A stretch of 33,727 bases of DNA, taken from a virus. A program made the translations under genes and the position numbers. The DNA is taken from the IMG/VR virus record IMGVR_UViG_3300033156_000380, one strand, 5' to 3'. The notes under the pieces were generated by a model. It did not search any database. It was not told the DNA's origin and saw only the letters and a program-made list of their open reading frames with translations. How positions within the stretch are numbered: the first letter of the stretch is position 1; every line of letters starts with the position of its first letter. Shown in pieces: positions 5,569 to 25,290 of this stretch.

Positions 5569-5967
5569 TTAACATCCGCAATAGTAATAACCGCTATTGA
5601 GGATGTTATATTTTTTATTTAATTCAAAAGTTGGCATATGACATATTTTTTTGAATTCATCATATGGTATTCTTTCTATACTGCCATTGTGAAATCTCCC
5701 CTGTATGCGATATCTACCGCATGACTCGCAGACTCTCACGACGAGAGCTCCTTCATAAAATTCATTTTTTAATAAACTTATTTTTGCATTATAAATTCTC
5801 TCAACGTCGTTCTTTGCATCGGCAAAAGCCTGACACCCTGGACATAGACTATAATCATAGTCTATGCAGGTACATTTCGTGAATGTTTTTCTATCAATTT
5901 TTTCAATCTTTTCTTGCATTTTTTTTACTAATTCTTCAAGTTTTTTTTCAAATTCTTTTCTATCCAT
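5569..5967 (-). CDS. Hypothetical Cys-rich protein, 132 aa
   Basis: ORF track. N-terminal coiled coil followed by CTC...CPGC...CESC...CGC motifs. Confidence 0.55.
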   Translation of the reverse strand: MDRKEFEKKLEELVKKMQEKIEKIDRKTFTKCTCIDYDYSLCPGCQAFADAKNDVERIYNAKISLLKNEFYEGALVVRVCESCGRYRIQGRFHNGSIERIPYDEFKKICHMPTFELNKKYNILNSGYYYCGC

Positions 5968-5978
5968 TTCCTTCCTCC

Positions 5979-6293
5979 TTATTCGGCCTCAGCAACATCG
6001 CCACGGTTTATCATGTAGTGACACTGCTGAAACTCGTCATTTATTATTATGTCTATATTCTCATCATGTCTCTTTGAAAAATCAAGACACAATGAGACAA
6101 TATAGTTCATTCTTTTTTCTTGAGTTTCTACTAAAAGGTCTATATCTTTTCGTCGGCTTTCTTCGTCGTCATCGTAAAGTTTCGAGAGAGAACCGACGAG
6201 ACTGACACGAGCAAGTGGTCTCACAAGAGAATCTAACTCATCAGCAATTCTCTCTCCATCTTTTTTTGTATATATTTCATATTCTCTTTTCAT
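5979..6293 (-). CDS. First gene of the early operon; possible minimal nucleotidyltransferase (MNT-like), 104 aa
   Basis: LVGSLSKLYDDDEESRRKDIDLLVE resembles the GS...DxD signature of the NTase fold. RBS GAAAGGAGTAAGAAA and a promoter lie immediately upstream. Confidence 0.5.
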   Translation of the reverse strand: MKREYEIYTKKDGERIADELDSLVRPLARVSLVGSLSKLYDDDEESRRKDIDLLVETQEKRMNYIVSLCLDFSKRHDENIDIIINDEFQQCHYMINRGDVAEAE

Positions 6294-6327
6294 TTTCTTA
6301 CTCCTTTCAAAAAACTTTCTACTATTA

Positions 6328-6355
6328 AATATAACATATCTTAATTTTCCGTCAA
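6328..6355 (-). promoter_or_regulatory. Sigma70-type promoter for the early operon
   Basis: Minus strand: TTGACG (6355-6350), 16-nt spacer, extended -10 aTGtTATATT (-10 at 6333-6328), about 35 nt upstream of the ATG at 6293. Confidence 0.5.
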
Positions 6356-6788
6356 GTATTTTTTTACATTTTTTTAATATTTATTTTCATTCTTTTAAAC
6401 ATTTGCATAACTTTAGTTTATATATTCTTTATAATTACTGTTTACAGGGGTTATACATTTTATATATTTTCTTTCTTTGCCTATTTTCTATTTCTTTATA
6501 TATATAGACTTACACTGCTGCCTCTTTTTCTGCCTTACACCCCCCTGGGGGTATGCCCATTTTTTAGTACAAATATGTCAATAATTTTTCATAACTTATT
6601 GCCACACAAATAATTATATCTTCAAAATACTGCCGTTTTAGATACCCCCTTCTTTCAAACCCATGTTTTAATACCTTTTCTGGATTTTCTCTTAATGTGG
6701 TTAAGATATGCAAATGGTAGGAATTTGTATAACTCTTTATATTTCTTCATTTAAAATATTTTGCCTATTTTCATGAAAAATGGGTATT

Positions 6789-7016
6789 TTAGGGGTCTGG
6801 GAGGTTCTCTCTTTCCACAATTCTTTTAATTTCGTCAATTTTCCTGTTTATGTGCTTCAGTTCATTGCTGATTATTGAATATTCGTTACTCAATTCCACT
6901 ACCCTGCTTTCCATCTTGTCCATTCTTTTTGTTACATATCCAAATGATGTCATTGCCACTGTAATAAGAATAGATACAATTATTGCTATCCATTTTACCG
7001 TCGAATTGTTTGTCAT
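6789..7016 (-). CDS. Membrane protein, N-terminal TMD plus coiled coil, 75 aa (last lysis-cassette gene)
   Basis: WIAIIVSILITVAMTSFGYV TMD followed by a heptad-like segment. The ATG overlaps the stop of the holin-like ORF (ATGA). Confidence 0.6.
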   Translation of the reverse strand: MTNNSTVKWIAIIVSILITVAMTSFGYVTKRMDKMESRVVELSNEYSIISNELKHINRKIDEIKRIVERENLPDP

Positions 7017-7189
7017 CTTTTCACCTGCCCCAGTGCATCTATTGCAGATTGCCCCCCGATATAGATTACAGTCACAACAAAAAAGTATTGCAATACTCCT
7101 GCCCTGTCCTCAATACCCACGAACAGCACAACAACCGTAAGCACAAGCCATACTGCAAATGCAATAAACTTTCTGCTCTTGAATTTCAT
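7013..7189 (-). CDS. Small ORF absent from the track (58 aa): holin-like protein with two TMDs
   Basis: Hand translation: MKFKSRKFIAFAVWLVLTVVVLFVGIEDRAGVLQYFFVVTVIYIGGQSAIDALGQVKR. Two hydrophobic helices, charged ends, and a position inside the lysis cassette. ATGA overlaps at both ends. Confidence 0.6.
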   Translation of the reverse strand: MKFKSRKFIAFAVWLVLTVVVLFVGIEDRAGVLQYFFVVTVIYIGGQSAIDALGQVKR

Positions 7190-7605
7190 AATAACACCGC
7201 CACTAATAATATTATTAAAACCAAACTACCCACCGCCCCCAGCCTTGAGTATCTCCTTAATCTGTTGTATCTTTTCTCTAATTGCTCGTACTTGTTCAAT
7301 AGCTCTTGATAGTTCTCCTGATATTCTTGTAGTACCTTCTGATAACTCTCCAGCAATTCTTTCTGCTTCTGCAATTCGTTTTCTGTACTCTGCAATTTCA
7401 TATTCGAGTTGCTCAACACTTCTTGCAAACTCCTGATTTTGTCTTGATAATCTTTCATTAATTTTTGAATATTTATCAACCTCTCTTCCAAGCTCAGCAA
7501 TTCTTTCTCTATACTCTCTGTTAGCTGTAGAGCCTCTCCACCATAACAAACCGAATATGACACAAATAATAAGCAGAATAATAATAATATATTTTTCCAT
7601 TTCAC
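7186..7605 (-). CDS. +1-frame ORF overlapping all of 7226..7600: putative membrane coiled-coil protein with hydrophobic N- and C-termini, 139 aa
   Basis: Open for 139 codons in the +1 frame of the previous gene. The GTG start overlaps the upstream TGA (GTGA). The TGA stop overlaps the downstream ATG (ATGA). The product has an N-terminal hydrophobic segment, heptad repeats and the C-terminal TMD LGAVGSLVLIILLVAVLL. Confidence 0.4.
   Translation of the reverse strand: MKWKNILLLFCLLFVSYSVCYGGEALQLTESIEKELLSLEERLINIQKLMKDYQDKIRSLQEVLSNSNMKLQSTENELQKQKELLESYQKVLQEYQENYQELLNKYEQLEKRYNRLRRYSRLGAVGSLVLIILLVAVLL
7226..7600 (-). CDS. i-spanin-like membrane protein (N-terminal TMD plus long coiled coil), 124 aa
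   Basis: The ATG at 7600 lies 4 nt after GGAGGTGA. IIIILLIICVIFGLLWW TMD then an Arg/Glu/Ala-rich coiled coil. Third codon positions are strongly A/T in this frame. Confidence 0.7.
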   Translation of the reverse strand: MEKYIIIILLIICVIFGLLWWRGSTANREYRERIAELGREVDKYSKINERLSRQNQEFARSVEQLEYEIAEYRKRIAEAERIAGELSEGTTRISGELSRAIEQVRAIREKIQQIKEILKAGGGG

Positions 7606-7946
7606 CTCCGTTTATTCTCCCTCAGAAATTTATTTATTTTCTTTTTGATTATTTCCAGTGTCTTTATACAGTCCATACCATAGTGCCTTCTTTCCTTGTA
7701 ATTTTCATATTGTCCATTTAAAAATCTTATCAAGTCATCAAGGTGCTCATCAAATTCCCATTCATTATCTGTGAATTTCTCAATCAGATTATTTTTTGCT
7801 TTCGATATACTAACATAATTATGACACAATAATTCTATTTGCTTTACAATGCCCTCAATTTCTTCCCCCCTGTCCGACATCTCCTCAAGCTTATTCATCA
7901 TCTTTTGCATTTTATTCATGTACATTATTTCTGTTATATTCTCCAT
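7602..7946 (-). CDS. Hypothetical soluble protein in the lysis cassette, 114 aa
   Basis: ORF track; starts 2 nt after the endolysin stop. Confidence 0.6.
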   Translation of the reverse strand: MENITEIMYMNKMQKMMNKLEEMSDRGEEIEGIVKQIELLCHNYVSISKAKNNLIEKFTDNEWEFDEHLDDLIRFLNGQYENYKERRHYGMDCIKTLEIIKKKINKFLRENKRR

Positions 7947-7947
7947 T

Positions 7948-8295
7948 TTAAACTCGCCTTCTTTCGAAGTGAGGAGTATCTATAAAATCTCCCTTATAAT
8001 TTCCACCCCATCGGTTGAGGGGATTAAGACTTTCCCAAAAATCTCCAATCGGCTGTAATATTTCTTTCGCATACGTAAGCTTTCCATTCACCCAGATATT
8101 ATAATCACGAGCTAACCTATATCCGTGGGGCCCCTTTTCCTTGATTTTGCTCTTTCCTTGCTCATAATAGATTTTTTGCATTTCATCAGGACGCCATGCC
8201 TCTCCATAAGTATATTTGTATCCATGATTTATCATCCAAAGCTCGAGTAGGACGCAATCTTTCGCAAACTCAAATTGTTGGTCGCTGAGTTTCAT
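7948..8295 (-). CDS. Endolysin, M15-family (VanY/Peptidase_M15_4-like) zinc peptidase, 115 aa
   Basis: Motifs PHGYRLARD (H..A.D) and NRWGGNYKGDFIDTPHFE (WGG...D..HFE). Single-domain, with no cell-wall-binding domain. Confidence 0.85.
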   Translation of the reverse strand: MKLSDQQFEFAKDCVLLELWMINHGYKYTYGEAWRPDEMQKIYYEQGKSKIKEKGPHGYRLARDYNIWVNGKLTYAKEILQPIGDFWESLNPLNRWGGNYKGDFIDTPHFERRRV

Positions 8296-8322
8296 TTTTA
8301 AACAACCCCCTTCACTAAATAT

Positions 8323-9414
8323 TTATACCCCCCAGGGGGCATAAGAAACATATCCTATTCGAATCCCTGCCACAAATCCTTTTTTCGGTTCGCCTGTCTG
8401 TGTTGGAGGATCAATAAGTATTCTCATCTGGTATTGATAACTGGCATAATTCAGCACAATATTTACAGATGAATGAACTTCTTGTTCGTCGTTAGCATCT
8501 ATAACTGCATAACCGCAACTTGTCCAGGTATCAACATTTCTCGCAGCTCTCATAATATACAACCAAGTTTCTCTACCAGAACCATAAGGCCCTTTACCAT
8601 AAAATCTTATTTCATTGATCTTCACACCGTCTGGAAGCATTATTGGAAAAACTGCTATTAACTCTCCTTCTCCATAATCTGGCCCGATTAAATGATTATC
8701 CCACCAAGGGTCTCCATGGTAGCTATAACCTTCATAGCCTGTACGAATGGGTTGAAATGCTGTTGCGTTTAAACTCCAATAATTTTGAACCTCACTTTCA
8801 AACTGCGTATTATTATCTATTCTTGTAGGATGATTATTCGCATTTGCATTTTTAAGTCTTTTGTAAGTACTTCCGTCTGGCAAATCATCTAATGTTTTGC
8901 CACTGAAATATTTATACGTAGAGCCTTCAGGAATATTGTCTAAACTTACACTCCCAGTCCCCCCAAATCCACTTATATGCTGTGCCTCTACTGCATCATT
9001 GTTTATACTTGAAGCAGTGATTTTATTCGATGAAACTCCAGCAACTTTTTTATATGTGCCCCCATCTGGTATGTTATCAAGACTCCCCCCTGCACTTGCA
9101 GCCTGAGTCAAAGTCACATTGTGCGGATTTGAAGTGTTCTCCTTGTGGTTATATGCGTCTTGCAATGTCATTGCAGGATTAGTCCACCAGTTCGCCTTCC
9201 CCGTTATTGCCTTTATCCTGTTCGCAAACCAGTCAAGAAACTGCCTCAAATACCCCGTGCTCGAACTCGGCGCTTGACTCTGATCAATGTCCCTACTCCC
9301 CAGCTCTACCGCATTGACATCTCCTTCAATCCTGTTAAGGTCATCGTCACCCACAGGGTCTGAAGCTGTCCAGTCAGTCTTTGGTGCTTGCCATCCGCTT
9401 GGTGCTGTCCCCAT
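8323..9414 (-). CDS. Tail fibre / receptor-binding protein, 363 aa
   Basis: The N-terminal W.APKTDWTASDPVGDDDLNRIEGDVNAVE motif is common in fibre proteins. Three LD(N/D)(I/L)P(D/E)G(G/S)TYK repeats. RBS GGAGGAGGAAAAAG upstream. Confidence 0.7.
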   Translation of the reverse strand: MGTAPSGWQAPKTDWTASDPVGDDDLNRIEGDVNAVELGSRDIDQSQAPSSSTGYLRQFLDWFANRIKAITGKANWWTNPAMTLQDAYNHKENTSNPHNVTLTQAASAGGSLDNIPDGGTYKKVAGVSSNKITASSINNDAVEAQHISGFGGTGSVSLDNIPEGSTYKYFSGKTLDDLPDGSTYKRLKNANANNHPTRIDNNTQFESEVQNYWSLNATAFQPIRTGYEGYSYHGDPWWDNHLIGPDYGEGELIAVFPIMLPDGVKINEIRFYGKGPYGSGRETWLYIMRAARNVDTWTSCGYAVIDANDEQEVHSSVNIVLNYASYQYQMRILIDPPTQTGEPKKGFVAGIRIGYVSYAPWGV

Positions 9415-13026: not shown

Positions 13027-15153
13027 TCATCCCCTTTCGCCAAATCTTATATTCTCTTGTATTCTGATATCTCTCAATTTTCTTTCCAATTTTTTCAAAC
13101 CATATTCATCCGCTACCAATGTCCCTATGTTCAACGTCACCGGCCTACTTATTGCCCCTCTCCTTGCTTCAAGCCTCGAAACAATCCCTTCAGCCAGCCC
13201 CTCAAAACTTTTTTCCGTCAACGGTATTACAGCTTCACTTGCCTGCCCTTCTCCCACCATTGCCATTACGGGTTTTTGCACAATTGCACCTTCCTGCAAA
13301 GCCCTTATTCCCTGTGCCGCCAGAAACAAACCTGCCGACGCAGCTGCATATTTTACCGCTTTCCCCCATTGCAATGTGACTGTAAACATTGCTGCCAGTG
13401 CTGAGTATTTTTTTGCCAAGCCAGTCAAAACTGATGCAATCAAATCTTTTACAGCTTCTTTTATTTTTTTTGTGGTATCTCCTGTTGTTGTCCATATTGC
13501 TTCCCATGAATCTGCAAATGAATCTGCCAGAATTTTTTGATACCATTTCAGTTTCCCATATTCTTCCATCATGGTTTCTACTGCATCGCTGGTTTTATTT
13601 TTCATATTATCACCCAGCTTGCCAAACCATTTAGATATCTCCTCTACCATTTCAGGTATTATTGATTCTCCAACCGTAAAATCAAAAAGATCTTGAAAAA
13701 ACCCTTTCACCTTTCCTATTGCACCTTTGATTTTTTCTACTATTGTGTTGAATTTATCAACAAGATATGTCTGGAAAAAACCTGCTATTTTCTCAAGCAC
13801 TTCTTTCAAGAAAGCCTTAACTTCATCCCAGTTTTTAATGATCAATAACGCTGCCGCAGCCGCAGCCGTGATAGCCAATATCATCCATCCCGCAGGCCCC
13901 ATAGCTCCCATTATGATCGGTTGCAATGCCGTTACAACAGGCGCAATTGCACTTATAGCAGTAATCATCTGCCCTAACACAATAAGCAAAGGCCCGATTG
14001 CTGCAGCAACTCCGGCCACAATAATTCCTACCTTAAAAAGTATAGGATTCGCTTCACTCAGATTTCTTATTAATTCTGCTGCTTTTCCTACAAAGTTTGT
14101 TGCCCATTCAAGCAAACCGGACTCAGCTATGGCCAAAGCTAACCCTTCTATCGCACTCATAAAAGCCTTAAATTCACCTCTTAATCCTTGCATTGTTACG
14201 TCTGCCATCCTTTTTGCTGTCCCATCAGCATTCTCAAGACTATCTCGTAAATCTGCAAAAGAATCTGCGCCCTGTTTGACAAGTGCAGCCATAGCAGGCC
14301 CTGCCCTCTGGCCAAATATCTGCATAATTTCCGCAGTGGAAGCTCCTGAGTCTTCTAACTGCCGGATAATATCCTCCATTGATCTTAAGTTTCCATCTGC
14401 ATCTAAAACTTTTATACCTAATTCATTCATAATCTCGGTGGCTTCATCACTTGGGGTTAAAAGCCTGGAAATGGCTTGTCGCAAAGATGTGCCGGCCATA
14501 GACCCTTGGATGCCTGCATTACCCATCATCCCTATGGCAGCTGCTGTCTCTTCAATTGTAAGGCCTGCTCCACTCGCTATTGGCCCGACATATTTAAAGG
14601 ATTCACCTAACATGTTCAAATCTGTATTAGTGCTGGTCATAGTTTGTGCAAGCACATCATTCACATGACTCAGGTCATCAACATTTATACCGAAACCGGT
14701 CAAAATGTTTGAAACAATATCAGCTGCACTTCCTAAGTCCATTGACGCCGTGGCAGCCAGCTCAAGAGTCCCGGGCATAGCCCCCAAGATTTCATTCGTA
14801 TCAAATCCCGCCATTCCCAGAAAATTCATTGCTTCAGCAGCCTGCGAGGCACTAAACTGTGTGGTTCTTCCCAGCTCTTTAGCTTGATTTTCCAACGCTT
14901 CGAAATCTTCACCAGCTGCTCCCGTGATAGCTTGAATTCTATTCATACTGAACTCAAAATCACTTGCAGCTTTCAGAACACCAACACCGACCCCCACAAT
15001 TGGTGCGGTAACGAACATGGACATCTTTTTACCGACATTCCTCATGTTTCTACCTGCATTTTCCAGCTTTTTTTGAACACTGGCGAGAGATGCATTAAAA
15101 TCTTTTGTATCTCCCATTATTGATATGAATATTTTCCCAAGTTCGCCTGCCAT
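13027..15153 (-). CDS. Tail tape measure protein, 708 aa
   Basis: Conserved TMP core (NMLGESFKYVGPIASGAGLTIEETAAAIGMMGNAGIQGSMAGTSLRQ), internal hydrophobic helices, and a position after the G/GT chaperone. Confidence 0.9.
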   Translation of the reverse strand: MAGELGKIFISIMGDTKDFNASLASVQKKLENAGRNMRNVGKKMSMFVTAPIVGVGVGVLKAASDFEFSMNRIQAITGAAGEDFEALENQAKELGRTTQFSASQAAEAMNFLGMAGFDTNEILGAMPGTLELAATASMDLGSAADIVSNILTGFGINVDDLSHVNDVLAQTMTSTNTDLNMLGESFKYVGPIASGAGLTIEETAAAIGMMGNAGIQGSMAGTSLRQAISRLLTPSDEATEIMNELGIKVLDADGNLRSMEDIIRQLEDSGASTAEIMQIFGQRAGPAMAALVKQGADSFADLRDSLENADGTAKRMADVTMQGLRGEFKAFMSAIEGLALAIAESGLLEWATNFVGKAAELIRNLSEANPILFKVGIIVAGVAAAIGPLLIVLGQMITAISAIAPVVTALQPIIMGAMGPAGWMILAITAAAAAALLIIKNWDEVKAFLKEVLEKIAGFFQTYLVDKFNTIVEKIKGAIGKVKGFFQDLFDFTVGESIIPEMVEEISKWFGKLGDNMKNKTSDAVETMMEEYGKLKWYQKILADSFADSWEAIWTTTGDTTKKIKEAVKDLIASVLTGLAKKYSALAAMFTVTLQWGKAVKYAAASAGLFLAAQGIRALQEGAIVQKPVMAMVGEGQASEAVIPLTEKSFEGLAEGIVSRLEARRGAISRPVTLNIGTLVADEYGLKKLERKLRDIRIQENIRFGERG

Positions 15154-19173: not shown

Positions 19174-20415
19174 TTACGATGCTGCTGTCTTGAGCCTTGA
19201 AATTGCCGACGGTATTCCACCGACAAATCCTTGCCTGATCCTAAACCTCAGGAATATCTGGTCATAATCTACATTGCGGATAGTGTCTCTATAAATCTTG
19301 AACTCCATTCCGACCTTTTCACCGTGCAACCAGTGTTTCGGGTTTCCGTAGATTATGAACGATGTTGATGCTGCACTCCCTGACACTTTCGGCATCTGAT
19401 CCGCCAGTATGTACGGTACTCCTGCTATCGTGGCCGGCACTCCTTCCGCCATTTTTTGATATATCGGTTGTCCATCGTCGTCGGTCAGTTTCCTGATGAC
19501 ATTGAATATCGTCCTATGCATGATATATATAGCCCCTATATGATGTGCCTCCATTGTCAAGGCATCCTGCAGATTCAATAGGTCTTCATAAGTCACGTCA
19601 GAAAACGATGTCTTCCCTGCTCCCATTATCACTTCTTGAACGCCTGTATCGTGCAACATTCCGGTGAACGGTGCAGCATTTGCCGTTAAAACCTGCTTGT
19701 CGAATTCCTGTCCCCATGCTTCTGCGAATAGTTTCTGAAAATACTGTACCAGATTGATTGTAGAATCCTCTTCCAGCTCTTCTGTCCAAGTCAACCATCC
19801 TGCACAGGTTTTCGCTTCTAAATCCTTTTGCCCGAATGTTGGGTTCGTTTCTGATTTTGCCGAACTCTCATCCGATGGCCATACCAATGTTACCCCAGTT
19901 GCCCCAGTCTGAACTTCCATCTTTCTTCTGCCCATTGGCAGTGTGGTTACCTTGCCCATCATCGTCGAAGCCTGAAGTGAAAGTCGCATCACCTCATCGT
20001 ACCATTCTGTCGGCACAAGGTACGATCCCGTGACTGCATCTCCCCTTAAAACCGTTCCAAGCGCTGCTTTCTGATCCGCCTGTGCATTCAGGAACATGTT
20101 CCAGTTTTCAACTTCGCCCCAATCTTGGGTTACCAACTTCCCACCGGACTTCGCTACTCCTGTCAAGTCGCTTTTCCATGCAGATTTGAGAAACAATGCG
20201 CTTTTCTCTTCCGGCTTCATATTCTCAAACTCCCTCTTTCTCCAGTTTGCGCTTTCTTCAAGAAGTTTCTGGAGCTTCTCGGACAGACTCTTAATCTCCT
20301 CATCTTTTTTCTTGATTGTCGCCCCTGTCTCCTCCTGCATTGCTTTTATCAGGTTTTTGAAATCCGACAGCGTGCTGTTTTCATCCAGATCGTCAATCAT
20401 CTTGAAAATATCCAT
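19174..20415 (-). CDS. Major capsid protein, HK97 fold, with N-terminal coiled-coil delta/scaffold domain, 413 aa
   Basis: The ATG at 20415 (MDIFKMIDDL...) is preceded by AAGGAGGACAAAAACA; the track ORF extends to 20538. GSYLVPTEWYDEVMRL and the overall layout are typical of HK97-family MCPs. Confidence 0.9.
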   Translation of the reverse strand: MDIFKMIDDLDENSTLSDFKNLIKAMQEETGATIKKKDEEIKSLSEKLQKLLEESANWRKREFENMKPEEKSALFLKSAWKSDLTGVAKSGGKLVTQDWGEVENWNMFLNAQADQKAALGTVLRGDAVTGSYLVPTEWYDEVMRLSLQASTMMGKVTTLPMGRRKMEVQTGATGVTLVWPSDESSAKSETNPTFGQKDLEAKTCAGWLTWTEELEEDSTINLVQYFQKLFAEAWGQEFDKQVLTANAAPFTGMLHDTGVQEVIMGAGKTSFSDVTYEDLLNLQDALTMEAHHIGAIYIMHRTIFNVIRKLTDDDGQPIYQKMAEGVPATIAGVPYILADQMPKVSGSAASTSFIIYGNPKHWLHGEKVGMEFKIYRDTIRNVDYDQIFLRFRIRQGFVGGIPSAISRLKTAAS

Positions 20416-21727
20416 TGTTTTTGTCCTCCTTGAATTCAAATATTGATCCGAGCTTTCGCTCACGCCTAAAAAATCCACCCTGTTTTTTCTGCGGTTTGTC
20501 TGCCTCCCGGCCCGCCAGAATGGTTGAATATAGGCCACTTTTGTACTTTTCTGTATTATTTTGTATTTCTTTTCTTAATTTTTTGATTTCTTCTATCATA
20601 TCTAATACCATCTCATCAATACTTTTGAAGTCCGGCACATCTTTGTCGAATTCTTTATAATGTTTTGCCAGATGATTATATACACCTTTCTTATCATTTT
20701 CTGGTATCTGGACCCCACCTCTCGCTCCTAACAGTGCAGCCATTGCTGCAGCTACTCCTCCCCAAACTACCGGATGTTTTCCTCCCGCCTTGTGGTGTGG
20801 TAGTTTATATGAAGATTTCACATCTGGATTTTCAGAGTCATACCATGCGCACATTATCTTCAGATCATCAACATCAGCATTCCTCACTTCTGCCGCCGCA
20901 TCCCAATCCTCGCCTTCCGGTGCTTTCGGTGTTTCCTTGTACGGTATTACCTTTTTCTCTTCCATGTATTGTATCTTTTTCGTTTTCTCTTCTATACTCT
21001 TCAATTCTATTATTGCATTTGGATTCGCCCCCACATTCACAAGCGACAGCTCATACAATTCCGCCTCTGTCGTTATCATCCTCGGTTCTCCATCTTTTGG
21101 TTCATCTTTTGCATATTCTCTTTTAAGTGGTATATATCCCACACTTACCGCCCTCAATATTTTCTGATCTACCAGCCTCCTCACAACATCCGCCAGATCA
21201 TAAGTCCCCGGCTCTGCAAACTTCACCTTAAACTTTAATTTTTCTCCGTGCTTGTATGCTTTCGCCGTTCCTATCCCCGGTATGTCGTGCCTATGCCCCC
21301 ACAAAATTATCGGATTCTTGTTATTATAATTTTCCAGTTTCCATCCCGACATCTTTATTATTTCAGAATCCCTGTCGAGGGTCTCATCGCTCCCCACAAA
21401 TACATATGTATCTTCTGCATCTTTTTCTACATCACAATGAAATATTGCTTTCATCATCATTTTCTTTTCCTCCTTCTTGATTTCTTTTTTTGCCGGCTCA
21501 AATGTTCCCCCTTTTTCACGGCAATGTTTCCTTGCATCTCTCTCTGTCCATATATTTGTTCTATATCTTAACGCTTGTGCCTCTGCATCTCCTTTCTTTA
21601 TCCCAAAGATGTAGTCTATGCATTTCCCATCACTTTTTTTATAACAATTTACTCTTGCGAATCTTTCATATTTGTCTGGGTTCTCAAGTCTACATGAATG
21701 CTCTTGCTCGTACGGAATAGTAACCAC
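20393..21727 (-). CDS. Prohead serine protease (HK97/S78 family) with extra N- and C-terminal domains, 444 aa
   Basis: The KNPIILWGHRHDIPGIG motif fits the S78 family. The C-terminal KLPHHKAGG...AAAMAALLGARGG module is common in phage protease/scaffold fusions. Confidence 0.85.
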   Translation of the reverse strand: MVTIPYEQEHSCRLENPDKYERFARVNCYKKSDGKCIDYIFGIKKGDAEAQALRYRTNIWTERDARKHCREKGGTFEPAKKEIKKEEKKMMMKAIFHCDVEKDAEDTYVFVGSDETLDRDSEIIKMSGWKLENYNNKNPIILWGHRHDIPGIGTAKAYKHGEKLKFKVKFAEPGTYDLADVVRRLVDQKILRAVSVGYIPLKREYAKDEPKDGEPRMITTEAELYELSLVNVGANPNAIIELKSIEEKTKKIQYMEEKKVIPYKETPKAPEGEDWDAAAEVRNADVDDLKIMCAWYDSENPDVKSSYKLPHHKAGGKHPVVWGGVAAAMAALLGARGGVQIPENDKKGVYNHLAKHYKEFDKDVPDFKSIDEMVLDMIEEIKKLRKEIQNNTEKYKSGLYSTILAGREADKPQKKQGGFFRRERKLGSIFEFKEDKNNGYFQDD

Positions 21728-21738
21728 CCCCTCTCATT

Positions 21739-23811
21739 TTAATCCACCACCGGCACAGTTATACATGAGCAATTTATCACTTCTTCCGGTGGGCCCACCT
21801 CGTCATGAGGATATCTAATCCCCGACGGAAAATATTCTCCCACTTTCCTTATTTCCATGTGGTTTCCAATGTGGCTCTCACGAATAAGTCTTGTCGAATA
21901 CCATTGATGCCTCTCTATCCCCGCTTCATTCATTCCGTCCCATCTCGCTTGACTCATCGTCCCGTTTACCTCTGTTCTTGCTACCGTCTTTGTTCTCCTT
22001 CTTGCATTGTTGAATATATTCTTCACTTCTGTTGCCAGTTCTTTTGCCAGTTCATCATAACTTGCTCCTACTTCCAGCCCCCTGCTGATAATCGGTCTTA
22101 TTCCATCAATTACCTGCTCCCTTATTGTTTCGTTTATCTCCACTATCTTAATGGCCTTGCTGTTTATTGTTCTTATCGCCCTCTGTGAAGTCGACGTAAA
22201 TGTTGATCCGAATGTCTCCACCATATCTTCCACACTCGCTTCATAAACCGCCTCGTATCTTGGTTTCGTTATGTCCATAAGTTTTATATTCCAATCGTCT
22301 TCTTTCCACAGAAAATCCGCCTCTATTCTTTCCATCTCCACCGCTTTGATGCTTTTCTTTGCAAATATTTTTGTCATCACTTCCGTTCTCAACTCATAGA
22401 AATAATCTTCAATATCTTTCTGCATCGCATTCTGAAACGGCCTTATTGTCATCATTATTCTTTTCCACATTCTTTCATATCGTTCCGTTTTTTCTTTCTC
22501 TGTTATTATTGCTGCCCGGGGTTCTACAATCATTTTCTTACTTTTATCGCCCGTCCCGTTTCCTTCTGTTGCCGGTATCAGATTCATCGGTATCCACCAT
22601 ATGTCCCTCCATGGCTTTTCTTCAAACCCAAGTTCCAGCCTCTTGTTTATCTCATTCGCCGTGAACCCCAAATCTTTCAATCTTATCGCTACCTTTATCT
22701 TATCCGACAAGGTCTCTGACAATACCGAAATGCTTGATATATCGAATTTTCCTTTAATTTCTTTTAGCCCTTCCCTGTCGAAAAACTCCGTCCTCAATAC
22801 ATCTTCAATATATTTCATTATTGGGATCAAGGTATTTTCATACAGCTGTTTTCTCTGTTCTCTTATATTCGACTTTATTGATGCATGCTCCAGAACCTGC
22901 GACAGAGCCGGTGGTACTCCCAGCACCGCAAACACTTCATCTCTGCTCCACTTTTTTTGTTCTATATACATTACATCTTTTTGCGCCAGAGCTATCGGCA
23001 CATATTTCGTTCCTCGACCGGTTACAAGTATTTTACCTCTCTTTTTCAGCCCGCCCAACTTTCGCCTTATTCTTGTCTCTATTGCTTCTGCTTCTTCTGG
23101 GGTCAAATCCTGATCTGTAGATAACTGACCCGCTGGCGAGGAATCATTATTGAAAAAGTAATAGTTATATGCTGTTGCAGCAAAATCTACATCCATCCCA
23201 AGACTTGCAGCTACCAAAGGAGATAATCCCCTATACGGATGAAATGGATTATAATATTTGAATTGAATTACATCTTCCAGCTCATGATATATCCTGTTCG
23301 ACCCCTGCCATTCTCCCCACATTACCAATTCACCGTTTCTCACTATCGCTTCCATCGTGTCAGGATGGGGAAACCTTATTGATACCGGAGTCCCCTCTGC
23401 TGCCCTTTTCAATATCCAGAATGCTTCCCCCCTCAATGATAACCATGTAACTATACTTTCAAATAACGTGAACTTGTTCTGATTTACTGACACATAATCG
23501 AATAATCTTTTTATCCAGCCGTATTTTGTACCCGTCAATTCTACTTCTTCTCCATCCGCCATCACCTGATACAGTTTGAAGTCTACCATCGATAGGTTCA
23601 TCGCCATTATTCTAATCGCCGAAAATACCCATGCATTTTGTAGGTACGGATTTGTAACCTTTACCTGTCTCGGTGAATCCTCTTCCTGCCCCATCGCCAG
23701 AAATCTCAAAATAAGACTTGAGCTCGAAAAATCATAATCACTCGGTGGCATCACTGTTTGAACCGTCCTGAATCCTGCCCCGATGGCCTTTATTATATCT
23801 CTTATTTTCAT
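21739..23811 (-). CDS. Portal protein (HK97 family) fused to a C-terminal Mu F / SPP1 gp7-like minor head domain, 690 aa
   Basis: N-terminal ~420 aa are portal-like. The C-terminal ARTEVNGTMSQARWDG...HQWYS...ESH...INCSC matches the Phage_Mu_F signature. Confidence 0.9.
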   Translation of the reverse strand: MKIRDIIKAIGAGFRTVQTVMPPSDYDFSSSSLILRFLAMGQEEDSPRQVKVTNPYLQNAWVFSAIRIMAMNLSMVDFKLYQVMADGEEVELTGTKYGWIKRLFDYVSVNQNKFTLFESIVTWLSLRGEAFWILKRAAEGTPVSIRFPHPDTMEAIVRNGELVMWGEWQGSNRIYHELEDVIQFKYYNPFHPYRGLSPLVAASLGMDVDFAATAYNYYFFNNDSSPAGQLSTDQDLTPEEAEAIETRIRRKLGGLKKRGKILVTGRGTKYVPIALAQKDVMYIEQKKWSRDEVFAVLGVPPALSQVLEHASIKSNIREQRKQLYENTLIPIMKYIEDVLRTEFFDREGLKEIKGKFDISSISVLSETLSDKIKVAIRLKDLGFTANEINKRLELGFEEKPWRDIWWIPMNLIPATEGNGTGDKSKKMIVEPRAAIITEKEKTERYERMWKRIMMTIRPFQNAMQKDIEDYFYELRTEVMTKIFAKKSIKAVEMERIEADFLWKEDDWNIKLMDITKPRYEAVYEASVEDMVETFGSTFTSTSQRAIRTINSKAIKIVEINETIREQVIDGIRPIISRGLEVGASYDELAKELATEVKNIFNNARRRTKTVARTEVNGTMSQARWDGMNEAGIERHQWYSTRLIRESHIGNHMEIRKVGEYFPSGIRYPHDEVGPPEEVINCSCITVPVVD

Positions 23812-24983
23812 ATGAATATCTGTACTCTCCTCTTTCGTATTTCTTTACAATGTCCGTATCGTATTGAGTCTATACAATGATTGTACGCATCGAGCACTAT
23901 CGGCAACACTTCGTTCGTGCTCTTATCCACTTTATAGCTATATAATTTTGCCTCCTGTGCTGTGTGGTGGCATCTTTCATGTATTATAATTTCATCAAAG
24001 TTTCTCAGGTATTCAATCCCATCCTCTACCGATCCTTTCCATGCTTCTGCCGGCATTATCCTGAATCCCCTTCTTCTCATGTATGATATTGTCTCTGGCC
24101 TCGATGGATCAGCATATGCCGGCCACTTGTCTGATCCCGGGACCGACCTGAATAACTCTTCCAGCTCCTCCAGTTCTACCCCCACACCATAAGCTTCGTG
24201 ATCTATATACAATTTCCTGTCCCTTTTCCAGCTCCTCGTCATCACTGTCGGGTCATGCGCAAATCCCCAGTCAATGCCATAATAAAATCTCTCCACATCT
24301 TCCGGAGTCTCAAAATCTTCTACCCGCCACCTTTTCAATATTCTCGCCTCTGTCAGCTTTCTGGGGTTTCCTTCCCAAATCCAATCATACTTGTCCGGAT
24401 CATGCCTCTTGTCCCTTTCCGCCGTCTCCTCCAGAATCTTCGGCAACCACGGGTTATCTCTATATGTCGTCTTTACCAGTATCATGCTTTCGTCGCATTC
24501 TTTTACGAATCGTCTATATGTTTCTCCATCCTCATCCTCAGGGTTGAAACTTATCCATATTTGACTTCCCTCCGTCCTTATTGTCGGTATCAGGTAATCC
24601 CACGAATCCCTTGACACATTCTCAGCCTCCTCAACCCAGCACAGGTCTATACCTTCAGTCGATTTTATTTCTGCTGCATTATGTCTCAATCCTTTGAATA
24701 TGAACTCACTTCCATTCAAACACTTTATGCTATTTCTTTCTATATTAAAATAATCATCATATCCCAACATCTTAATCTGATCTGATAATAGTTTATGCAC
24801 TGATTCCCTTATCGAATTTTGAAATTCTCTTGTGCACAATATCCGCTTTTCTTCACTTACCGCTTGCACTATAAACCATCTTGCTATACTCCAGCTCCTA
24901 CCCCCTCCCCTACCTCCGTATGCCACATTAAACCTATTTGGTTCTTTGAACTTACTAAACTTAGGTATTATCCTGACCTTCAT
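23808..24983 (-). CDS. terL: Terminase large subunit (PBSX/Terminase_3-like)
   Basis: Walker A-like AYGGRGGGRSWS and an overall TerL layout. The ATG at 24983 follows GAGGAGGAAG; the track ORF starts at TTG 25004. Confidence 0.9.
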   Translation of the reverse strand: MKVRIIPKFSKFKEPNRFNVAYGGRGGGRSWSIARWFIVQAVSEEKRILCTREFQNSIRESVHKLLSDQIKMLGYDDYFNIERNSIKCLNGSEFIFKGLRHNAAEIKSTEGIDLCWVEEAENVSRDSWDYLIPTIRTEGSQIWISFNPEDEDGETYRRFVKECDESMILVKTTYRDNPWLPKILEETAERDKRHDPDKYDWIWEGNPRKLTEARILKRWRVEDFETPEDVERFYYGIDWGFAHDPTVMTRSWKRDRKLYIDHEAYGVGVELEELEELFRSVPGSDKWPAYADPSRPETISYMRRRGFRIMPAEAWKGSVEDGIEYLRNFDEIIIHERCHHTAQEAKLYSYKVDKSTNEVLPIVLDAYNHCIDSIRYGHCKEIRKRRVQIFI

Positions 24984-25290
24984 CTTCCTCCTCGCCCTTT
25001 CCAAATACTATCTCTATCTTCTTTGGAAACTCAATTCCCATGTGCTGAAGTTTCTGAGTCGGCAACCCGTCAACTCTGTCCCATATTATCCTTCTCGCCT
25101 GTGCATCTCCTTTCATTGCATCCTGTATTGTCTTCAGAACGAAAATGTCTTTGCTTATCAGCCTTTTTGTGTCTAACCTGTTGAGCTCCCCCTGAGTCAT
25201 CTCCAGATAGTATCTCAACCTATCCGCCAATGATGACCTGCCCAAGGGTCTGCCTCCAGGGTTACCTGACTGTCCTTTCTTGAACGGCAT
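24961..25290 (-). CDS. terS: Terminase small subunit candidate (DUF5681-type N-terminal motif), 109 aa
   Basis: The N-terminal KGQSGNPGGRP motif is typical of this small-terminase-like family. It lies immediately upstream of, and overlaps, terL. Confidence 0.65.
   Translation of the reverse strand: MPFKKGQSGNPGGRPLGRSSLADRLRYYLEMTQGELNRLDTKRLISKDIFVLKTIQDAMKGDAQARRIIWDRVDGLPTQKLQHMGIEFPKKIEIVFGKGEEEDEGQDNT

Follow-up and report, generated by a model that had tools for sequence, protein, structure and literature searches.

A 33,727-nucleotide (nt) stretch of viral DNA, IMG/VR record IMGVR_UViG_3300033156_000380 (hereafter the window), is a segment of a tailed-phage genome in which all genes, including the two open reading frames (ORFs) considered here, lie on the minus strand. 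These two ORFs, A and B, occupy positions 7186–7605 and read the same DNA in different frames. We interpret them, with a probability of about 0.8, as a conserved, co-extensive two-frame lysis gene pair that putatively fills the spanin slot of the lysis cassette. Dual coding itself is considered very likely. Both frames are open in all eleven loci of the family, at amino acid (aa) identities to the window of 18–35%, and comparison with synonymous-codon shuffles shows that the family keeps both ORFs and that purifying selection acts on each. Conservation extends to the paired start codons, the membrane topology signals and the position in a lysis cassette. From these patterns we infer that both A and B are translated.

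Two reading frames in one stretch of DNA

ORF A (7226–7600, minus strand, as are all window coordinates below) starts with ATG, stops with TAG and encodes 124 aa, with an N-terminal transmembrane domain (TMD) and one long helix with a GGGG end. ORF B (7186–7605) lies in the +1 frame of A, runs from a GTG start to a TGA stop and encodes 139 aa, with a signal-like N-terminus, a long helix and a C-terminal TMD. All of A lies inside the overlap. A first-pass annotation, made from the sequence alone, had described these two ORFs in their +1 relation, and the ORF list confirms it. The short overlaps with the neighbouring genes and the 36-nt gap between A's stop and B's end, which it had also pointed out, are present in the window sequence. 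B's GTG overlaps the TGA of an upstream gene for a 114-aa protein in a GTGA (7602–7605), and its TGA overlaps the start of a gene for a 58-aa holin-like protein with two TMDs in an ATGA (7186–7189). Both starts fall within a dual-start region, GGAGGTGAAATG (7598–7609), which holds the Shine-Dalgarno (SD) sequence GGAGG at 7605–7609, B's GTG at 7603–7605 and, 5 nt downstream of that GTG, A's ATG at 7598–7600. A hydropathy scan placed the TMD of A (residues 5–21) and the signal-like helix of B (residues 6–22) in one shared coding region (7538–7590). It placed B's C-terminal TMD at residues 122–138 (7192–7242), mostly downstream of A's stop and partly encoded in the 36-nt gap, as had been proposed.

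The openness of both frames was evaluated against a null in which the protein of A is held fixed, using the exact probability of a stop-free +1 frame as well as synonymous-codon shuffles (n = 20,000). This null predicts about 6–13 stops for B's frame, which has none. The probability of a stop-free +1 frame given A's protein is 2e-9 with the codon usage of the window and 7e-4 with A's own usage; none of the 20,000 shuffles had an open B frame, and the mean number of stops was 5.9. Conversely, the probability of A being open given B's protein is 7e-7 to 1.6e-4, and A was open in a single shuffle out of 20,000. Calibrated on the rest of the window (about 10,000 codons), the null expects 1007 stops in the +1 frame where 981 are observed, and the longest +1 open run within any other window gene is 60 codons. 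Isoleucine in A is encoded 14 times by ATT and 4 times by ATA, the share of ATA in the window being 65%. After each of the twelve NTA or NTG codons in A, the next base is one that does not complete TAA, TAG or TGA in the +1 frame; in one case, a GTA, this base belongs to a rare CGA arginine codon.

The first-pass annotation took A to be the primary frame, which holds for codon usage and for the ATG start. Third codon positions are A or T in 78% of cases in frame A versus 53% in frame B over the whole overlap, the counts of 18 of 20 and 11 of 20 reported earlier for 7441–7500 are exact, and the codon usage of the window is fitted better by A than by B. It does not hold for conservation, by which B is the more constrained frame (see below). 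In a codon model, the log-likelihood ratio of A versus B is 3–7 nats, compared with 50 ± 12.6 in 87 ordinary gene windows of 124 codons; with stops excluded, it falls at the 0.6th percentile. A local scan with the same model spoke against A being favoured in the 5' part and B in the 3' part, the ambiguity being uniform along the gene. Since this ambiguity is partly a by-product of A's composition, it is given little independent weight; once A's protein and an open +1 frame are conditioned on, the residual B-coding signal has a P of about 0.01–0.1.

Conservation of both frames in related loci

When 1.84 billion representatives were searched exhaustively with B in phmmer (cut-off E ≤ 1e-3), 11 matches were obtained. 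The best, P0001 (E = 4.4e-8), aligned B residues 6–135 to positions 9–149 of 151, and in a pairwise comparison the two proteins were 34% identical (E = 5e-16). Nine of the matches are 130–176 aa long and colinear with B, and they have in common a signal-like N-terminus, some 90 residues of coil with the motifs L..QK.LL and Y.ELL..Y..L.K.Y, and a C-terminal TMD that usually ends in K or R. The contigs of these homologues are phage or prophage. The family set analysed below consists of the window, nine independent loci found through B, and L046, which was found from the A side alone in an IMG/VR search using peptide patterns of A-like proteins (a three-sequence sub-alignment). L046 is the single confirmed match of that search, with an A-like protein 32% identical to the A-like protein of the query; single A-like queries gave no match. 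No match was obtained either in word-indexed protein searches with A and with B, in locus scans of viral, metagenome and genome collections with A, B and the 114-aa and 75-aa proteins of the same cassette, in an endolysin scan of genome contigs, in a megablast of the region against phages, or in tblastn against phages with A, B and two A-like relatives.

In the loci found through B, the A-equivalent frame (+2 relative to B) holds 0–1 stops over the whole coil, the first stop falling at the boundary between coil and TMD, and the remaining third frame holds 9–23 stops. The probability of A-frame openness per locus ranges from <2e-4 to 0.055 in shuffles, giving a Fisher combined P of 2e-12 with the window left out; in flanking genes the deficit of +2 stops is mild (observed/expected 0.76–0.97). 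In the relatives, the A-equivalent frame always encodes an N-terminal TMD followed by a coil. It has its own start 2–14 nt from that of B, behind the same SD, with offsets of −4 to +14 nt across the family. The start motif is ATGAATG in L032, L034, L036, L038 and L045, ATGTG in L041, L043 and L046, TTGTG in L035, ATGAAGTG in L040 and GTGAAATG in the window. In 10 of the 11 loci, A's stop precedes the region encoding B's C-terminal TMD, and the last residue of B is K or R in 8. The signal end of B is a small residue followed by Q, also in 8 of 11, and resembles a signal peptidase I site; a small residue plus Q corresponds to the Bacteroidetes Q-rule pattern for signal peptidase I substrates as cited in PMC10367356. 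Neither the placement of the TMD nor these signal ends depend on the overlap.

With B fixed and synonymous codons shuffled per gene, pairwise identity in the A frame is 0.208 versus 0.125 ± 0.005 in the shuffles (z = 18), and identity at the third codon position of B is 0.387 versus 0.313 (z = 11). In the reciprocal shuffle with A fixed, identity in the B frame is 0.268 versus 0.167 (z = 20). The same test on control families (distant M15 endolysins, the family of the 75-aa protein and a signal-coil family) gave z values of 0.3–3.9. Conservation of either frame thus exceeds what the other would impose on it. The first-pass annotation had put forward genuine dual coding, for two coiled-coil proteins anchored in the membrane, and named an open +1 frame in related phages and suppressed synonymous variation as its expected signs; both are found, the former in all ten further loci. 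The locus thus combines frames open beyond chance, conservation in divergent loci and suppressed synonymous variation in both frames, as does a dual-coding pair. The nucleotide identity by B codon position is 0.47/0.52/0.37, so that constraint is stronger on B and A evolves faster, and B is also the frame with detectable homologues. In an A-guided alignment, too, the identity of the B frame (0.268) is above A's own (0.234).

That better conservation of B would suit a reading in which B alone is the gene, with its signal, coil and C-terminal TMD, and A an untranslated shadow ORF that is open as a side effect. It would also suit the observations that position 3 of B's codons, which is position 1 of A's, is the least conserved nucleotide position, that the gene calls in every public locus fetched are of B only, and that A's TMD and heptads follow automatically from B. 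We nevertheless consider this reading unlikely, given an A frame open in every locus (combined P of about 1e-12 to 1e-14), a start codon for A that adjoins the SD in each of them, and synonymous sites of B that are constrained toward conserving the protein of A with a z of 18, when no control exceeds 3.9. In the window, moreover, it is A that begins with ATG and agrees better with the codon usage. The converse, that A is the only gene, an ordinary i-spanin-like one, and that the B homologues are mis-called +1 frames of A homologues, appears highly unlikely. The ATG, nearby SD and typical third-position composition of A in the window are in line with it, ten of the loci were selected through B, and coiled-coil genes do yield coil-like +1 frames. 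It is contradicted by the identity of the B frame in the A-guided alignment, which is higher than that of A and 20 standard deviations above shuffles, by the position of B's C-terminal TMD beyond the overlap, by the terminal K or R of B in 8 of 11 loci, and by the Q-rule-like signal ends. L046, found through A, speaks against it as well: its B frame is open (P = 0.006) and encodes the full architecture, with MCARKLFALLLLACCLLPSSAQASQ at the N-terminus, a coil, and a TMD closing with GGIVSAAIILTEGVIIAIK, the end of which is K.

A single hybrid product would arise if a +1 shift, or a 1-nt assembly indel, joined the coil of A to the TMD of B near the G5 run at 7236–7240. This run lies 8 nt before A's stop, and a 1-nt change there fuses A to GAVGSLVLIILLVAVLL and a stop, ending on the ATGA. 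Such a hybrid, which the first-pass annotation had offered as a possibility, accounts for only the last 15 or so codons of B and not for a B frame that is open and conserved over its whole length; it also leaves B's own start and signal unexplained, and the relatives share no slippery site. Because both frames are open at full length in 11 independent assemblies from different sources, slippage or an indel at the G5 run is unnecessary and we judge it very unlikely. A long alternate-frame ORF could finally have arisen by chance in a coiled-coil gene and been picked from many scanned windows. The same window does contain a stop-free +2 stretch of 119 codons (13238–13597) in the tape-measure-like gene at 13027–15153, for which the same null gives a P of about 1e-4 to 1e-3; the encoded sequence does not resemble a protein, and the stretch, probably a chance occurrence, served as a calibration point. 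For the A/B locus, P values reach down to 2e-9 with the codon usage of the window, and conservation of both frames in ten further loci is not a look-elsewhere effect, so that chance is effectively refuted by the comparative data.

The lysis cassette and the two proteins

The pair lies in a lysis cassette anchored by an M15 peptidase endolysin (7948–8295; Pfam PF13539 and a PHROG endolysin match). Along the minus strand, the cassette begins with a tail-fibre-like protein (8323–9414), followed by the endolysin, the 114-aa acidic soluble protein (7602–7946; supported by tblastn and by ORFs in related loci), A/B, the 58-aa holin-like protein (7013–7189; a weak PHROG holin match together with its architecture) and the 75-aa protein, which has a TMD and a coiled coil (6789–7016; tblastn to L001, L005, L011, L013 and L015) and is kept at the cassette end in related phages. 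No separate ORF for a lipoprotein or with a lipobox was found in the cassette. The endolysin's relatives are all on Gram-negative hosts; these relatives and the Q-rule-like signals suggest a diderm host. The N-terminal half of the 114-aa protein resembles 59–94-aa proteins that follow the endolysin in related phages, with only residues 9–57 or so aligning. A stretch of about 500 nt at 6294–6788, 3' of the cassette, has no convincing ORF and may be an operon boundary or regulatory region. Across 5800–8600 there are 25 promoter-like hexamer pairs, against 10.3 ± 2.6 in shuffles.

A comparable setting is seen in the family. In L034, L036, L038, L041 and L043 the gene is located 3' of a VanY/M15 endolysin and a small TMD protein, and in these loci as well as L032 and L035 it closes the late operon. 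A 54-aa holin-like gene is found just upstream of the pair in L046. The closest relative of the A/B module, L039, is a prophage in the metagenome-assembled genome GCA_016934265.1 (contig JAFGTF010000076.1, locus 6001–6961), adjoined by the host genes asd and feoAB. Its gene order is like that of the window (A/B pair, 2-TMD protein, coil protein), and the window A and its counterpart there are 34% identical (E = 7e-21). It is also the sole locus in which A extends beyond B's stop. The coupling to the holin-like gene through ATGA that had been read from the window has a tight counterpart in L039, where B's TAG abuts the next ATG (TAGATG), but it is not a general feature of the family: the pair is the last gene of the operon in most loci, and what is conserved is the two starts 2–14 nt apart behind one SD. 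Extra small proteins with a coil and a TMD are encoded near the A/B pair at L034:56-472, L032:758-1210 and L040:57-398; the TMD lies at the N-terminus in L034, and L032 and L040 have it close to the C-terminus in an XhlA-like manner. This suggests that the lysis cassettes of the family are rich in helical membrane-anchored rods.

A different situation was found in phages related through the endolysin (L001–L031; endolysin identity 80–86%). What they have in common with the window is the endolysin, the 75-aa protein and, of the 114-aa protein, the N-terminal part; neither tblastn nor hhalign detected a homologue of A or B in them. Between the shared genes they carry a module encoding holin-like TMD proteins, a 66–83-aa protein and a 126–140-aa protein, the latter two from separate genes at L005:2889-3487, L011:2986-3605, L015:3240-3853, L013:6742-7338 and L018:6944-7530. 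The 66–83-aa protein consists of a TMD, a Gly linker and a helix; the 126–140-aa protein starts with a signal, which carries a lipobox-like Cys (e.g. LSSC) in four of six, and continues through a coil to a conserved Gly-rich C-terminus of beta type, whose last residue is K. No annotated PHROG matched either of them, and the two genes may form an unusual spanin pair. A/B thus sits where these relatives have two separate spanin-like genes. On one related metagenomic contig, an ORF for a group II intron-type reverse transcriptase/maturase (L020:4743-6092; 449 aa) adjoins the cassette downstream.

In AlphaFold2 (AF2) models, A folded alone is a helix over residues 2–121 (predicted local distance difference test, pLDDT, 94) and B is one continuous helix over residues 2–138 (pLDDT 84). 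An N-terminal TMD followed by a coiled-coil domain, the architecture of an i-spanin, is present in A, as the first-pass annotation had it, and in all ten A-like relatives. A matches phrog_214 (E = 2.7e-6), a weak match in which coiled-coil bias is possible, and six of ten A-like members match the Rz-like spanin phrog_739 (best E = 6.7e-5), again weakly, in register from the TMD; no Pfam family was found for A. B has the C-terminal TMD of a u-spanin, which was detected in nine of ten B-like proteins scanned (the tail of L035 scores below the TMD threshold, and the hydrophobic C-terminus of L046 was read by eye). It has neither the beta-strand periplasmic domain of u-spanins, being all-helical in AF2, nor their outer-membrane lipoprotein signal. 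Its frame, +1, is right for an o-spanin, but its start lies 5 nt upstream of A's start and not in the middle of the gene. An o-spanin lipoprotein partner for A is not apparent, as no lipobox is found in B or elsewhere in the cassette. Two Pfam candidates for B were set aside. SLATT_5 (PF18160) scored 29.9 bits against a cut-off of 29.5, over profile positions 93–182 of 192, and none of nine homologues match it; we take this hit to reflect the composition of a coil with a TMD. XhlA (PF10779) did not match the B of the window and was hit by P0010 only, with 20.3 bits against a cut-off of 34.7.

Several of these observations weigh against a two-frame lysis gene pair with a spanin role. Hydrophobic N-termini and heptads in one frame follow automatically from the other, so that the coiled-coil nature of both products is not independent evidence. 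A's pairwise identity is modest, 0.19–0.23 versus a raw 0.18–0.20 in the third frame, and the conservation signal for A comes from the comparison with shuffles and not from raw identity. Ten of the eleven loci are the window or were found through B, and B is open in those ten because they were selected through it, which leaves L046 as the only unbiased test of B. The SD GGAGG abuts B's GTG, a poor spacing for initiation, for which reason a second SD-like motif seen in the sequence, GAGGGAG (7617–7623), 11 nt upstream of that GTG, may serve B; initiation of B in the window may thus proceed from this motif, with its 11-nt spacer, or by reinitiation after the upstream TGA. As to the spanin role, the PHROG matches are weak and of coiled-coil type, including that of four of ten B-like members to phrog_89, and B has no evident way to reach the outer membrane. 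A canonical lipobox is absent from all eleven B-like proteins, as the first-pass annotation had noticed for the window. The B of the window has YSVC, a Cys that is not conserved and is absent in L043 and L034. Since o-spanins and u-spanins are defined by the lipobox, [LVI][ASTVI][GAS]C (PMC6139136), B is by definition neither.

A spanin-like role is nonetheless suggested by position and architecture, namely by the place in the cassette, the Gram-negative hosts of the endolysin relatives, the lack of any other spanin candidate and the exchange of modules in the relatives. The weak matches of A-like members to phrog_739 and of B-like members to phrog_89 are in line with it.

Some further features of the window may be mentioned. 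Its genes encode a terminase, a portal protein, a prohead protease, a capsid protein and a tape-measure protein; its GC content is 31–43% and the coding strand is purine-rich. The large terminase (23808–25004) is closest to those of the deep-sea phage WC36-2 and the Nitratiruptor phages NrS-1, NrS-2 and NrS-3 (48% identity). From its first GTG, the capsid-family ORF overlaps the protease-domain ORF by 146 nt (19174–20538 and 20393–21727); either the capsid start is further downstream or the overlap is a real overlap or fusion arrangement. The contigs related to the window come from JGI metagenome assemblies.

Relation to known lysis genes and possible mechanism

The embedded spanins lambda Rz/Rz1 and T7 18.5/18.7 resemble A/B in that one DNA encodes two lysis proteins, with the +1 frame used for the second. 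In one partner an N-terminal TMD precedes a periplasmic coiled coil, endolysin and holin genes adjoin, and the host is diderm, as it probably is here. Embedded o-spanins start at about 0.4–0.5 of the i-spanin length, end inside it and are short lipoproteins defined by the lipobox (PMC6139136). B, in contrast, starts 5 nt before A, runs past A's end and is longer than A, and it is all-helical, without a lipobox and with a C-terminal TMD. That the arrangement differs from Rz/Rz1 had been recognised from the sequence, and this stands in the family at large: the two genes start together and B runs past the end of A. In the overlapped pairs, P2 LysB/LysC and Rz/Rz1 of Shewanella LambdaSo, the +1 gene does reach past the i-spanin end into the intergenic region. 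The second ORF of LambdaSo starts at nt 340 of a 174-codon gene and encodes a lipoprotein with an essential Cys (bioRxiv 10.1101/2024.01.23.576932). Those overlaps are partial and their product is a lipoprotein, whereas A and B are co-extensive and B has no lipobox. The topology of B, with a signal-like N-terminus and a C-terminal TMD, recalls the u-spanin gp11 of T1. U-spanins have an outer-membrane lipoprotein signal, and the periplasmic domain of gp11 is predicted to be mainly beta (PMC6139136). Unlike gp11, the B-like proteins of the eleven loci lack a lipobox, form a single helix and always have an overlapping partner.

Outside the spanins, closely spaced paired starts in a lysis gene also yield two products in lambda S105/S107. 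There, two close starts lie behind one ribosome-binding site and the product ratio is set at initiation. The starts of lambda S are in-frame and give near-identical proteins, whereas those of A and B are in different frames and give unrelated sequences. Same-strand, out-of-frame overlap with one frame more conserved and synonymous change suppressed is known from phiX174 D/E and MS2 L as well, in tiny, size-limited genomes in which the embedded gene is much shorter than its host gene. In contrast, A/B belongs to a double-stranded DNA tailed phage of at least about 34 kb, and comprises co-extensive ORFs of 110–175 codons with relatives only 25–35% identical. Full-text literature searches covering nested starts, lysis genes that overlap and the architectures of spanins yielded the known spanin classes (embedded, overlapped, separated and unimolecular) and the overlapped pair of LambdaSo, and no description of a co-starting, full-length, two-frame lysis pair. 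Out-of-frame overlapping lysis genes are thus already known; the co-extensive, co-starting pair and its two protein families are apparently undescribed.

We propose that one ribosome-binding region loads ribosomes, which would choose between B's GTG and A's ATG, 5 nt apart, and that the same DNA would then be translated in two frames over nearly its whole length. In the window, translation of B would in addition be coupled to the upstream gene through the GTGA and to the holin-like gene through the ATGA. The product of frame A is probably an i-spanin-like inner-membrane protein of type II, in which about 100 residues of periplasmic helix follow the N-terminal TMD. In the product of frame B, a signal-like N-terminus, either cleaved or serving as an anchor, would be followed by a helix of some 95 residues and a C-terminal TMD encoded just past A's stop; this protein would probably be exported and anchored through that TMD, its basic end lying in the cytoplasm. 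As both would be read from the same DNA, the lengths of the two rods would be locked together and their synthesis coupled. A and B might act together in the periplasm at the final step of lysis, as a functional spanin equivalent without a lipobox, for which we see nearly an even chance.

More tentatively, A/B may represent an unrecognised, lipoprotein-free "co-start" class of spanins in phages that infect Bacteroidota-like or other diderm hosts and have had no spanin assigned to them. Two equally long rods, one N-anchored and one C-anchored, could then form the active complex, with nested starts setting their stoichiometry; this, too, we regard as somewhat short of an even prospect. Co-extensive ORFs of about 110–175 codons with starts a few bases apart are a more demanding coding solution than Rz/Rz1, and the pair has survived divergence to 25–35% identity with both proteins under selection. 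It provides a natural comparative test case of two long helices that share every codon, and it exposes a blind spot of annotation, since gene callers give one frame only. No spanin could be identified in 91 of the surveyed genomes (Kongari et al., PMC6139136), and the pair is a candidate for the "missing spanin" of phages without a findable lipoprotein spanin. The choice of frame at the nested start codons is predicted to be a regulatory device of these phages.

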